This document shows positions 14,255 through 31,494 of a stretch of 64,000 bases of DNA, piece after piece (position 1 is the first letter of the stretch; every line of letters begins with the position of its first letter). Source of the stretch: Promethearchaeota archaeon. GTDB lineage: Archaea; Asgardarchaeota; Lokiarchaeia; Sigyniarchaeales; SOKP01. The stretch is taken from contig JAEOTP010000016.1 of assembly GCA_016839765.1 (NCBI GenBank), positions 96,001 through 160,000 of the forward strand, in the 5' to 3' direction. The position numbers and the translations under genes are program-made. The notes below the pieces were generated by a model. It was not told the DNA's origin. It worked only from the letters and a program-made list of their open reading frames with translations, and searched no databases.

Positions 14255-15505
14255 ATGAATGATAGAAGCAACAAGGATCAAGATTCAAAAAAAAAATCAC
14301 TCAATCAAGACAAATTTGAAGATTCAGGAGAAGATAATAACAATTTAAAATCTATAAGGTTGACGGAATTATCTCCAACTGATAAACTAATACAAAAATA
14401 TGGAATTAATCCTGCGAAAACACCCGTTTTATTGAAGCTTAATGCCTATCGAAGAATGGTTGGATATGCAATGAGATATGCTAATAATGAATTATCGGCA
14501 AAAAATTGGCGCGAAGTTTATGGAATCCTAATTGGATCTATAGATAACAATAAAGAAGTGATTATAAAAGATGCTATTCCAATGATTGTAGGAGACCGCG
14601 CAGGTGTAAGATATGAAAACAAACAATATGTTGATATGGCTCAAATTGATGAATCCGTATATCAAAAGTCCATTCAAGATAAAAAGAACGATTTTATAAT
14701 AGGATGGTGGCATACTCATCCTGGATTTAAGTTTTTTTTTAGTTCTGTAGATTGCTTAACTCAATTAGGGTATCAAATTCCAAATCCATTTGCGGTAGGT
14801 TTAATTTTTGATCATTGTGAATTAAAATCTACAGATTATTATCTAGGAGTTGCTGCACTACGCATGTTAAATCCAGAACAAGAAATGCTTTCTACATACG
14901 ATTTTACAGATTTGAAATTTGAATACCCTAAAAAAGATATGGTGAAAAAAGTTACTCCAATTTTAAAAGATTTAGATAAAAGTATTACAAAAGTCTTAAA
15001 GGAAGTAAAATATATTGACCAAACTTTACGTAAGAGGTATTTAGCTCAATTACAGAGAAATTATGGATTAATTTTAGTACCTAAAAGTGATATTATAGTA
15101 ACTGCTGATGAAGAGGAAGCTGAAGAGGATGAGAGATATTTATATGAATGGGATCCTGATTTCTTTAAAAAAAGTTTTAGGATTCCTAAGTTCAGAGAAA
15201 AAGTGGAAGAGGATATTAAAAAGTATGAAGAATCTTTATTAGAAATCAAGAAAAGTGATGGTGAAGCAAAATTTAAAGAAAAGAGAGAAAAATTTAAGAA
15301 AAAAATTCATGCACTTTTAGCAAAACCAAATGATTGGTATAATAGATGTATTGAAGATTTCACTAAACGTATTGAAATTATTTTTCCTTATTATGATTAT
15401 TTAGATACCAATGAACGTAAGATAATTGAACATTTTGAGTCTAGAAGCTCTGAGTATTATAAAATTTTAGACTATTTAAATTCACGTTCAGAATTTAATC
15501 TATAA
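14255..15505 (+). CDS. MPN+/JAMM metallo-isopeptidase (Rpn11-like) with a long helical C-terminus
   Basis: REVYGILIG (catalytic Glu) and GWWHTHPGFKFFFSSVD (HxH-x7-S-x2-D). Confidence 0.85.
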   Translation: MNDRSNKDQDSKKKSLNQDKFEDSGEDNNNLKSIRLTELSPTDKLIQKYGINPAKTPVLLKLNAYRRMVGYAMRYANNELSAKNWREVYGILIGSIDNNKEVIIKDAIPMIVGDRAGVRYENKQYVDMAQIDESVYQKSIQDKKNDFIIGWWHTHPGFKFFFSSVDCLTQLGYQIPNPFAVGLIFDHCELKSTDYYLGVAALRMLNPEQEMLSTYDFTDLKFEYPKKDMVKKVTPILKDLDKSITKVLKEVKYIDQTLRKRYLAQLQRNYGLILVPKSDIIVTADEEEAEEDERYLYEWDPDFFKKSFRIPKFREKVEEDIKKYEESLLEIKKSDGEAKFKEKREKFKKKIHALLAKPNDWYNRCIEDFTKRIEIIFPYYDYLDTNERKIIEHFESRSSEYYKILDYLNSRSEFNL

Positions 15506-15679: not shown

Positions 15680-15997
15680 ATGGTTAATGATACCACACTA
15701 ATAATAAAAAACCGTTCTGATAAAGATAGAACTATTAAAGATGCTATTTTTGCATTTTCTGGAGGGACCAAATCACTAATGATAAAAGGTGAAGGTGATG
15801 AAATTTCAACTGCAGTGGAAGTTGCTGAAATTTTAAAACATCGGATGTACCCAGGTGTAGAAATAGCGAATATTTCACTGGGAAGCCGTCCATATTATTA
15901 TGATAATCGACAAGCTTATAGAGTTAAAAAGAAGGATAAGCAAAAAAAAGATTTAATCTCAAAGATAGAAATAACACTTTCAAAATCGATTCAATAG
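15680..15997 (+). CDS. Divergent Alba-family DNA/RNA-binding protein
   Basis: IKGEGDEISTAVEVAEILKHR and ISKIEITL match the Alba pattern, with an extended basic loop. Confidence 0.75.
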   Translation: MVNDTTLIIKNRSDKDRTIKDAIFAFSGGTKSLMIKGEGDEISTAVEVAEILKHRMYPGVEIANISLGSRPYYYDNRQAYRVKKKDKQKKDLISKIEITLSKSIQ

Positions 15998-17387: not shown

Positions 17388-17412
17388 GATTTATTTATAG
17401 AATCAATTTTGC

Positions 17413-17420
17413 TATTTATA
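17413..17420 (-). promoter_or_regulatory. TATA box for the leaderless 17387 gene
   Basis: TATAAATA on the minus strand, about 25 nt upstream of the ATG. Confidence 0.5.
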
Positions 17421-17479
17421 TTATTTCAAATTTATTTTTAAAAAATTTTGTCCCATAATTGTTGGATTTAATAATAAGA

Positions 17480-17487
17480 TTTAAATA
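17480..17487 (+). promoter_or_regulatory. TATA box of the candidate ncRNA
   Basis: TTTAAATA preceded by a purine-rich BRE-like stretch, centred about 27 nt upstream of G17511. Confidence 0.55.
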
Positions 17488-17510
17488 TTCATTTCACCAT
17501 CTTATTTATT

Positions 17511-17985
17511 GGACAATAGTATTGCATTGGAATTGAATACAATTATTACAGTCCACAGTAGAGTAAATTGCGACTATTTAATAAGTTGAAATAACTCAAA
17601 GATTTTTTATTTTTGGTGACTAAGGATTTAATGATTACATTGAATCCAATTGTTTTTTATTATTGATTTACATTTGTTCCTATAGTACTCTATAGAAAAT
17701 TTCATAAGTTTTAATATTTACATCAATTCAGCAAATAATTATATTATACAAATAATTGCTATAAAAGGAAAAGTAGGTTATACTTAGGAGCGATAATAAT
17801 ATGAATTCTTGTCGTATTGAGTAAATTTTTTGATACTCGAGACAATAAATCAAAAATGGCTCTTTAGAAAAATTTCCTAATTTCCCAATAGAGGCTTTGA
17901 TTCAGGAGATCATTCATAGGAAGAAATAGTGCAATTTTCCTTTGATACAATTCTTCTGAGGTTATTGGAGCTACTATTGTCCACC
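17511..17985 (+). ncRNA. Candidate large structured non-coding RNA (~475 nt), family unknown
   Basis: No long ORF. TGGACAATAGTA (17510-17521) is the exact reverse complement of TACTATTGTCCA (17972-17983). Multiple internal stems, upstream TATA box, downstream T8. Confidence 0.6.
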
Positions 17986-18840
17986 TTTTTTTTCTCTTTT
18001 AAGCTGATTGAAATAATTTAAATCTTCAATAGTATCAATATCGTAAAAATTTTTTCTTGAATCTATTTTAAATGGAAATATATTTTGATGTTGCTTTAAA
18101 TATATATTTAATATTTCTCTAATTTCCTCTACTGGATTACTTTTAGAAAGTTTATTTAAAATTTCTAAAAAAGAGTAGTTTAAGACTAATATTGGAATAA
18201 TACGTTTAAGATATATTTCTTTGGGAACTGAATTTATATCGATCTTTTTAATTTCTTTAATTTTAATTTTTGGTTTAGTTTCATCAGATTCTAAAATTGA
18301 TATAAAATTAATTCTCCCTTTACCAGATTTATATAAATGTTTGGCTTGAATTTCTTGGTAAAAAATATAAGGGCTAGTTAGAAGTAATTCAAATTTTTCG
18401 TAAATAAAACTAAAAATTTCTTTTAATAACTCAATATTGAAAATTGTATCCCCAGGAAAAACAATAAATACATTACCCTTCTTGTAAATAATCTTGTTCT
18501 TCATTATGGAAAGTAAAGAAAACATTGGTCCCTTCTTATAATCTTGGCCTGAATTAACTATAAATAATTTATTTTTTAAATTCCGATGCTCTTTTATTAA
18601 TTTATCCAAAAAAGCTTCAATTTTTTCACTTAGATATCCAGTAACAACAGCAATTTTAGATACTCTTAATATACTAAGATCTCTAATTAAATAATTAAGT
18701 ATGGTAATGTTATTAAGAGCATTTATTTTAATTAGTGGTTTAGGAATTTTTTGATTAATTTTACTATATCTAGTTCCTTTACCAGCACATAAAATTATAG
18801 GTATTATACTTTTTTCTTTATTCTTCTTTTGTGGTAACAA
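17974..18840 (-). CDS. Sugar-phosphate nucleotidyltransferase family protein (true start possibly ATA near 18807)
   Basis: ILCAGKGTR...PKPL, PGD, YDIDTIEDL. Confidence 0.85.
   Translation of the reverse strand: MLPQKKNKEKSIIPIILCAGKGTRYSKINQKIPKPLIKINALNNITILNYLIRDLSILRVSKIAVVTGYLSEKIEAFLDKLIKEHRNLKNKLFIVNSGQDYKKGPMFSLLSIMKNKIIYKKGNVFIVFPGDTIFNIELLKEIFSFIYEKFELLLTSPYIFYQEIQAKHLYKSGKGRINFISILESDETKPKIKIKEIKKIDINSVPKEIYLKRIIPILVLNYSFLEILNKLSKSNPVEEIREILNIYLKQHQNIFPFKIDSRKNFYDIDTIEDLNYFNQLKREKKGGQ
17986..18000 (+). terminator. Oligo-T archaeal terminator of the candidate ncRNA
   Basis: TTTTTTTTCTCTTTT immediately follows the terminal helix and ACC. Confidence 0.55.
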
Positions 18841-24997: not shown

Positions 24998-25039
24998 TAT
25001 TTAAACTTAATTTTATATTATTTAAACAATAAATTTCTC

Positions 25040-25234
25040 TTATAATTCAATAACGTCGCACTTTATAGTATTTAGCAGTCTATTTGCTGTATTAGGATCA
25101 GTTTGGTATGTGTATAGGTATTTCTTTGTTCTGAGCTTTAGTTTTACAACATCCTTAATCCTTTTTACTCTACAATGAATCGCGAATTCGGCCAATTCTA
25201 AAAATTTATTTTCATCGAAAATTTCCTTAGGCAT
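25040..25234 (-). CDS. rpl38e: 50S ribosomal protein eL38
   Basis: MPKEI...KF...RVKR...VKLKLRTKKYLYT. Confidence 0.9.
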   Translation of the reverse strand: MPKEIFDENKFLELAEFAIHCRVKRIKDVVKLKLRTKKYLYTYQTDPNTANRLLNTIKCDVIEL

Positions 25235-25437
25235 GATATATCATCCGATATTTAAATGCTTAGAATTCAACTATTTGAATTCTAATTAATTATAAAATTT
25301 GAATTTTTTCATTCAGATACAAAAATTTTAATTCTTTTTACTATTCTTCCATACATCTTTATCTTGTAAATTAAAGATTATTGAATTAAAGCATTTATTT
25401 TTCTAAGCAAATAAAAAAGAAAACGGAGGAAATCGCA

Positions 25438-25602
25438 TTGGCACCTATTGATGACCCTTTCAAAAGAAGAATAGCTAGATATCATTTATTAGAAAAAAGT
25501 GTATGCAGACGATGTGGTGCACTCAATCCAATTAGAGCCAGGAAATGTCGTCGTTGTAGAGGAAAAGATCTTAGGCTAAAAAAAAGAGAATTAACAAAAT
25601 AG
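25438..25602 (+). CDS. rpl40e: 50S ribosomal protein eL40 (absent from the ORF track)
   Basis: TTG start after GGAGG. MAPIDDPFKRRIARYHLLEKSVCRRCGALNPIRARKCRRCRGKDLRLKKRELTK*. Confidence 0.93.
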   Translation: MAPIDDPFKRRIARYHLLEKSVCRRCGALNPIRARKCRRCRGKDLRLKKRELTK

Positions 25603-25771
25603 AGCCTTTTACTAATTTTAACAAAATAAGATTTAATTTTTTATACCTTCAGCTTCTTTTTCTCTTATAATAAATTTTCGTAAACTTTTTTAATTTTATG
25701 ACTTAGAGATCATTATATAACAATTAATTATTGATACAATCAAAACTTAAATTTAGTGAAAGTGAAAAAAT

Positions 25772-31027: not shown

Positions 31028-31238
31028 AAGCAGAATAACGAACTCAAAAAGATACTGATGTCTTGAAATTCACTTTTTCTTTTTGATTATCTATATTAGA
31101 AAGATTAAAAACAAAACTCTTTCTGAGCGTTAGAATTTAGTATGAGCAGATTAGTTTAGTCATAACATTATAGTAATCTTTAAATAAGGATTTGCGTTCT
31201 ATTTAAATTATAATCTATAGATTTTTGGTGAAACTTAA

Positions 31239-31340
31239 ATGAATAGAATATATAGAATAATAGGGATTGTCTTAGTATTAATTGTAATTGTTGTGCTTAT
31301 ATTTGGGATTATAGCGTTTAATTTTCCCGCATCTAATTAG
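31239..31340 (+). CDS. 33-aa single-TM small protein (absent from the ORF track)
   Basis: GGTGA SD at 31227-31231. MNRIYRIIGIVLVLIVIVVLIFGIIAFNFPASN*. Confidence 0.6.
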   Translation: MNRIYRIIGIVLVLIVIVVLIFGIIAFNFPASN

Positions 31341-31494
31341 ATGTCAAAAAAGAGAGATTAAAAGAATTAGGTATATAAGTAATTCCGTGATATTCTCAAA
31401 TTTTCAACAAATTTTCTTTGATTCTATTTTAATTAGAGAAATTAAATTTGATTATCATAAACTTTAATGGTATCATATCATTTTTTAAAAAAAG

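Follow-up and report, generated by a model that had tools for sequence, protein, structure and literature searches.

A stand-alone, syntenic non-coding RNA gene with a covarying closing helix in a family of Lokiarchaeia

The RNA gene and its neighbours

We analysed a stretch of 64,000 nt from a Promethearchaeota genome (hereafter the window), and the features found at the locus under study are collected in Table 1. Almost certainly, a genuine RNA gene lies on the + strand at 17511-17982/5, measuring 472 nt up to the end of its closing helix (P1), plus ACC. The initial annotation had proposed here a large, undescribed Asgard RNA equipped with a promoter, a terminal helix and a terminator of its own, and this is supported by synteny, covariation, single copy number, the lack of an Rfam match and the ends of RNA contigs. 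The motifs that it quoted (TATA box, inverted repeat, ACC, T8 and internal stems) are all present where it placed them. The gap in question (17401-17973) is indeed the largest ORF-free gap in the window at cut-offs of 50-60 aa, but not at 80 aa, where it ranks second. Other long gaps are 24998-25771, with a 64-aa ribosomal-protein-like ORF (25040-25234) and 537 nt preceding a thermosome gene, and 31028-31494 (467 nt).

Table 1. Features of the RNA locus (window coordinates)
Feature	Position	Strand	Evidence or remark
Divergent neighbour: cyclophilin-like protein, PF18050	16995..17387	-	separated from the RNA gene in genus g6
Putative archaeal promoter: A-rich BRE-like stretch and TATA box (17480-17487)	17468..17487	+	near-invariant TATA columns in 13 genera, fixed spacing
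RNA gene	17511..17985	+	syntenic copies family-wide; RNA contigs 17527-17983 from 4 studies
P1 closing helix, 5' strand	17511..17521	+	compensatory changes in several genera
CA(U/A)UGG motif, near-invariant	17525..17530	+	0-12 nt past P1; main family-wide motif besides P1
Small 5'-domain stem AGUC/GACU	17550..17575	+	35/36 cells paired in 9 close relatives
Internal U-tract, Sm-site-like here (AUUUUUGG)	17603..17616	+	63/80 copies
10-bp hairpin, clade-specific (GGATTTAATG)	17624..17647	+	10/10 pairs in all 9 closest relatives
Hairpin closed by UGUC/GACA, U-rich loop	17809..17845	+	kept in five genera; 91% of cells paired
3' arm, long irregular hairpin	17886..17971	+	GCUUUGA/UUGGAGC 94% paired in 32 sequences
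Conserved 3' hexamer, consensus UCRRWG	17965..17970	+	67/80 copies vs 5% of background windows
P1 closing helix, 3' strand	17972..17982	+	antisense to the last nucleotidyltransferase codons (G-Q-stop)
U8 terminator tract	17986..17993	+	T-tract past P1 in nearly all copies
Convergent neighbour: NTP transferase, PF12804/PF00483	17974..18840	-	last gene after aspS and map

Judged by the archaeal promoter consensus, the stretch upstream of the RNA gene probably acts as its promoter; the distance from TATA box to start is 30-31 nt, and the start is a G (here G17511). At the other end, the U8 tract is of the kind at which aCPSF1, its Loki orthologue included, terminates transcription (PMC7515710), and the internal U-tract is possibly a candidate internal terminator as well. 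A perfect 11-bp helix followed by a T-tract at such spacing was found at 2 of the 2680 TATA-like sites in the source genome (G000), the other being at C67:161471, counted on the minus strand. Folding z-scores are -3.9 on the + strand and -2.8 on the - strand. The genome holds one copy of the RNA gene, and no conserved ORF was found in it across copies.

The RNA gene sits at the 3' end of an aspS-map-nucleotidyltransferase gene run in all genera. Linkage to the cyclophilin-like gene is not obligatory, and in genus g3 the NTP transferase gene is absent from the site while the RNA gene is still there. Given this constant position, and given that P1 overlaps the stop codon of the convergent gene in 30 of 65 loci, the RNA could be read as a cis antisense or terminator element for the convergent genes that is stable just as a by-product. 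We regard this as very improbable: the overlap is about 9 nt or none in many genera, the RNA outlives the loss of the nucleotidyltransferase gene, and 340-630 nt with a covarying helix exceeds what a terminator needs. Nor is P1 a by-product of coding, because the stop codon falls elsewhere in the remaining loci. Near the RNA locus are also genes for a JAB/MPN-domain protein with a long helical tail (14255-15505) and an Alba protein (15680-15997). A tandem array with a unit of about 21 nt was seen downstream of a nucleotidyltransferase homologue in another genome, G107 (L123:2271-2830).

Distribution across Asgard archaea

At the DNA level, 39 of 41 genomes of the genus gave a match, mostly at both ends of the RNA, and all 29 loci of testable length were syntenic. 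By walking from the neighbour genes, we found the RNA gene in each of the 13 genera in the Promethearchaeota family to which the source genome belongs, and we extracted 80 complete copies of 343-632 nt; the comparison of syntenic intervals suggested at the outset thus returned an RNA that is conserved at the same site and whose P1 covaries. A profile made from the promoter and the RNA 5' end matched 21 additional genomes of the family at E 1e-7 to 1e-11, with nothing comparable in 48 other Asgard genomes (best E 2.5e-4, partial). Outside the family, where the neighbour genes sit in other contexts, no homologues were found at syntenic sites or by pattern search. This absence may reflect divergence, the conserved core being small. 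It may also be that the gene is a family-level invention, since searches of the sister family, to which the cultured strains appear to belong, did not find the RNA.

In a GTDB-wide pattern search, among the matches listed, all those with the closing helix were on Loki-like contigs with the same neighbours. Matches to viral contigs were chance matches, and the RNA is not virus-borne. Six records (L224, L259, L265, L266, L278 and L290) carry the RNA gene with Loki-type neighbours under titles that name Hermodarchaeota, Thorarchaeota, Odinarchaeota, Hodarchaeota or Nanopelagicaceae; they look mislabelled, or their contigs misbinned. Two unusual copies were also noted. One (G003, L269:3171-3960) is a possible 790-nt version with an intact 11-bp P1 and without an immediate U-tract. 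The other, a second copy in G052 (L190/L271, G052:C87), has the promoter, CAUUGG and the 5' strand of the helix, but a 3' strand to match is missing; it adjoins a second cyclophilin-like gene and resembles a truncated duplicate.

A small conserved core

Family-wide conservation is limited to the TATA box, P1, CA(U/A)UGG, a matching 3' hexamer and, in most genera, the U-tract. P1 is 9-15 bp long across the family. Among 24 genus-level haplotypes, Watson-Crick pairs fill 233 of 240 P1 cells; shuffling the partners gives 196.7±3.6, and none of 20000 shuffles reached 233. Related sequences do not count as independent in this test, yet the same changes are seen again in separate genera. Pair 4 is C-G, U-A, G-C or A-U depending on the genus, and pairs 1, 2, 3 and 6 swap too. 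In part of genus g11, P1 has slid outward, with five tip pairs gained and inner pairs lost, and because this remodelled helix stays at 12 bp, the length of P1 rather than the sequence of the ends appears to matter. A MITE, which had been raised as what dispersed copies would indicate, does not fit a single-copy gene at the same site in 13 genera whose P1 G-U pairs (U-G in genus g5) suit a + strand RNA.

The initial annotation took the ACC-like tail for a trait of stable RNAs. However, ACC follows P1 in 22 of the 80 copies, with TCT in 14, ACT in 12 and TTT in 10, and because these bases vary, an identity based on CCA or an aminoacyl end is unlikely. This bears on a tRNA mimic of the tmRNA or YrlA kind, in which P1 would be an acceptor-like stem to which CCA or an amino acid is added, with the GG in CAUUGG standing in for a D-loop. 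The 5' GG, the helix of about 12 bp, the ACC of the source copy, RNA 3' ends at 17982/3 and the context of CAUUGG, which recalls tRNA D-loops, are in its favour. tmRNA (RF00023) itself shares with the Loki RNA its size, conserved ends around a variable middle and a GG shortly past the 5' strand. Besides the variable bases past P1, the remodelled P1 tip in g11 argues against a mimic, as do the lack of a T-arm, a conserved discriminator, CCA or ACCA end, an ARAGORN call and a conserved tag ORF; SmpB (PF01668) was not found in the source genome, which is 96% complete, nor Ro60 (TROVE) in any of 6 genomes, one of them a single contig. We therefore reject tmRNA identity and consider a tRNA mimic improbable. 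A tRNA-derived gene was likewise rejected: a tRNA-Arg lies beside a distant nucleotidyltransferase homologue in two sister-family genomes only, which we take for coincidence.

Of all k-mers, CA(U/A)UGG is the most enriched (present in 11.1 of 13 genera, with 0.7 expected) and the only strong one family-wide. The linker from P1 to the motif varies from 0 to 12 nt, one genus has CAUUGU, and UGG followed by U or A is almost invariant. No consistent predicted pairing partner for CAUUGG was found; a helix P2, formed with a partner ahead of the U-tract, did not outscore other sequence windows. An exposed UGG(U/A) could serve as a sensor or guide by pairing with the tRNA 3' NCCA end, in the way of the T-box antiterminator bulge and the L15 loop of RNase P, or with another fixed RNA target. 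The near-invariance of UGG(U/A) and its lack of a fixed internal partner suit such a role, to which we give a low but appreciable chance. Against it stand the CAUUGU of one genus and the absence of a T-box stem I and specifier loop. Guide pairing with 16S or 23S rRNA was rejected for want of covariation: the sole 8-nt match in 16S does not covary, with the same rRNA site present in a genome that has CAUUGGA, and the 5' match in 23S appears to be part of the terminal helix of 23S rRNA itself.

The 3' hexamer can pair locally or with CAUUGG (P1b). It is compatible with CAUUGG in 11 genera, the pairs being C-G in 25/26 haplotypes, G-C or G-U in 25/26 and G-U in 26/26. P1b is favoured in genus g8 only, elsewhere the local 3' hairpin wins by 3-10 kcal/mol, and two-sided changes in P1b are few. 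If P1, an internal loop and P1b were to mimic an open promoter, the RNA could be a decoy of RNA polymerase or a basal factor in the manner of 6S or Ms1. Like Ms1 and 6S (PMC6582537), it is stand-alone, syntenic and lineage-restricted with paired ends, and genus g8 has a long closing stem. In contrast to them, the Loki RNA is archaeal and lacks a rod with a fixed central bubble; the loop is asymmetric (0 to 12 nt), there is no long rod fold, and no 6S or Ms1 Rfam match was obtained. A polymerase decoy thus seems distinctly unlikely.

Some 90-110 nt past the start, 63 of 80 copies have the U-tract, against 0-40% for other windows; four genera lack it. An exact match to the Sm-site consensus AU5-6G occurs in some copies only.

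The interior

The interior is weakly structured and fast-evolving. With P1 left out, folding of the interior gives a z of -1.6 in the source copy, and relatives fall mostly between -0.3 and -1.8; its length varies about twofold across copies. The multi-junction interior with a pseudoknot that the initial annotation described was overstated, as was its degree of structure. Of the long-range pairings, ATTGCATTG/TAGTGCAAT is broken even in relatives of about 90% identity and 39% paired in 32 sequences, and AAAGGAAAA/TTTTCCTTT is 41% paired; the proposed junction helices TATGAAT/ATTCATA (55%) and AATCAAA/TTTGATT (57%) are not paired beyond chance either. The 17624-17647 hairpin and the TGTC/GACA stem, both also proposed from the source sequence alone, are kept in relatives. 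The former shows no compensatory changes in the 9 closest relatives, and other clades carry a replacement; the AGUC/GACU stem shows a single A-U to G-C change among 9 close relatives. In the 3' arm, the 5' strand (17886-17900) pairs with 17965-17971 and repeats, in degenerate form, the 5' end of the RNA itself; GCUUUGA/UUGGAGC is 88.5% paired on the 3' alignment. The aligned copies would allow the stems of the 3' half to form, but the covariation of these stems, like that of GCUUUGA/UUGGAGC and the UGUC/GACA hairpin, is not above shuffles, and a model of the 3' half yielded no consensus pairs. Relative to close relatives and RNA contigs, the source genome has a 30-nt deletion at 17730-17731, which takes out one strand of a stem present in other genera.

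These data also bear on whether the RNA is a protein-free ornate oligomer such as GOLLD, ROOL or OLE, which are likewise large orphan RNAs (500-800 nt) and of a type that forms RNA-only complexes (PMC12286853). The size is alike, but theirs are densely structured whereas the Loki RNA interior is loose and divergent, folding near chance without covariation, and the gene is not virus-borne, which makes an ornate oligomer quite improbable.

RNA evidence

Nineteen runs recorded as RNA contain part of the stretch. RNA contigs from four metatranscriptome studies of sediment samples cover 17527-17983 and little else in 4.5 kb; the missing cover on flanking genes is no proof of their silence. Contig depth over the RNA gene is 6-190. 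Since the runs were chosen for containing the gene and contig depth is no measure of expression, abundance of the RNA is no more than suggested. In one run, adapters abut 17527 on the read-2 primer side and 17982/3 on the read-1 side, a layout from which we infer a + strand RNA ending at P1, if the library was dUTP-stranded. Contigs of two studies begin at 17527, i.e., inside CAUUGG and 16 nt past the predicted start, and either a stall of reverse transcriptase before P1 or processing within CA/UUGG would explain this. No circular back-joint was seen among the RNA contigs, which drop rare forms. A BHB consists of two 3-nt bulges around a 4-bp helix, and a BHB-processed circular or permuted RNA was rejected: the linker is 0-12 nt, and a cut at 17526/17527 misfits the geometry.

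Comparison with known RNA classes

The covariance-model check proposed at the outset gave no family match in the RNA gene of the window or in 20 homologous loci; with Rfam 15 at E<=10, nothing was found within the RNA gene except a 17-bit chance match over its 3' end (gathering 88). Literature searches returned no description of this RNA, nor of any large stable RNA in Asgard archaea other than rRNA, RNase P and SRP RNA. The genome's SRP RNA, with helix 8, is on contig C33 (E 5e-16, 71.9 bits, under cut-off), which excludes SRP RNA identity. A retron- or telomerase-type template RNA was rejected as there is no cognate reverse transcriptase: PF00078 was not found in the source genome, and none adjoins the RNA gene.

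The initial annotation had also entertained a highly diverged RNase P/MRP-like RNA. Archaeal RNase P RNA (RF00373) and MRP share with the Loki RNA a closing helix of about 11 bp, an own promoter, a U-tract terminator and a 3' hairpin beside the closing helix; the order of closing helix, 5' hairpin domain, 3' hairpin, GGAGC and closing helix recalls P/MRP topology, and a CCGAC present in about five genera could pair with UCGG. But CR-I and CR-V are absent, and the RNase P-type P4 pseudoknot was rejected, as the CCGAC/UCGG changes are not compensatory and favour a local hairpin. A canonical RNase P RNA with CR-I and CR-V is on contig C6, the source genome has one Pop5 gene (PF01900), and none of the 21 loci has an Rfam match. 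A degenerate, MRP-like RNase P paralogue with a new substrate is thus highly improbable.

Overall, this is a stand-alone, single-copy, family-wide non-coding RNA gene that is present as a discrete RNA. It fits no described family and is new as a family; its mechanism is a proposal.

Proposed mode of action

Few large stable archaeal RNAs are known besides rRNA, RNase P and SRP RNA. Eukaryotes, of which Loki-type Asgard archaea are close microbial relatives, have many long, fast-evolving scaffold RNAs. All genera of the largest Loki family sampled keep the gene, one copy each, a pattern suggestive of a housekeeping function or of global regulation. It is possible rather than probable, in our assessment, that the molecule is an abundant protein-binding scaffold or decoy RNA that acts via its terminal stem and whose U-tract may carry an Sm-like ring. 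Transcription would begin at G17511 and stop at the terminal U-tract, and the RNA ends would zip into P1, which would shield them. A protein would then recognise P1 and the adjacent CAUUGG. The 3' arm would hide the complement of CAUUGG and so leave the motif exposed, while in the alternative P1b fold the motif would be buried, so that the two folds might act as a bind/release toggle. The internal U-tract could bear an Sm-like ring of the archaeal kind, and the variable interior may serve as a loose tether for lineage-specific partners. Such a mode of action would resemble that of Y RNA, 7SK or Ms1/6S.

Several observations support a scaffold or decoy: conservation is concentrated at the joined ends, the length of P1 is kept in the remodelled g11 helix, the weakly structured interior has a roughly twofold length range, CAUUGG lacks a partner while the hexamer is compatible with it in 11 genera, RNA contigs are almost confined to the RNA gene, and either neighbour gene can be lost or relocated. 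The four LSm genes of the source genome count in the same direction, as do the binding of archaeal Sm rings to U-rich RNA and their association with RNase P RNA (PMC3710371). On the other side, no partner protein or target of the RNA was found, and LSm genes occur in all Lokiarchaeia families, with or without the RNA. An LSm paralogue that tracks the RNA was tried and rejected (usually 4 vs 3 matches, the fourth of the source genome being weak, SmAP3-like and near the detection limit). The scaffold reading is further weakened because the U-tract is absent in four genera, because P1b would cost 3-10 kcal/mol in most copies and shows few two-sided changes, and because internal helices do not covary above shuffles.

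Y RNAs and bacterial Yrl RNAs have ends that pair into a conserved stem with an adjacent irregularity, a variable interior and a 3' U tail. All these are shared by the Loki RNA, which differs in being 3-5 times longer and in lacking a T-arm, Ro60 (in 6 genomes) and an Rfam match. Sm-class scaffold RNAs, such as snRNAs and yeast telomerase RNA, carry a single-stranded internal U-tract between stems within a flexible, fast-evolving body; the Loki RNA resembles them in its internal U-tract and in such a body, but its tract is missing from four genera, there are no splice-site or template motifs, and reverse transcriptase was not found. A more specific form of the scaffold reading, an abundant Asgard-specific, Sm/LSm-bound RNA whose two-state terminal switch exposes or hides CAUUGG and so captures or releases a core transcription or translation factor, is unlikely; if true, it would be a convergent archaeal counterpart of eukaryotic 7SK, Y or snRNPs. 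The RNA is a defined molecule with which to ask whether archaeal Sm proteins already build stable ribonucleoproteins. Since the conserved core (P1, CAUUGG and the 3' hexamer) is small, partners could be fished with a short synthetic RNA.

Observations on 5S and 16S rRNA genes

A 5S rRNA with giant insertions was considered because no canonical 5S match was found in the family, where canonical 5S exceeded the cut-off in 2 of 45 genomes (both probably on foreign contigs) vs 12 of 14 in the sister family. A supersized 5S was rejected, as circularly permuted 5S genes are present elsewhere in genomes that also carry the RNA gene (L410, L411, L414, L416-L418 and L420-L425, e.g., L421 at G016:C8), two genomes of the source genus included. 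In genera g1, g4, g6 and some of g11 the break precedes loop C and comes with a short additional stretch; in genera g2, g8, g9 and one g11 genome it follows loop C. Contigs with canonical 5S (L404 and L188, G015:C263, with a divergent 16S as well; L391, G090:C68) look like contamination. In L176-L181, the 16S rRNA gene has a conserved structured leader some 200 nt upstream, and just downstream of the gene lies a tRNA-Ala gene that carries an intron-like insert.
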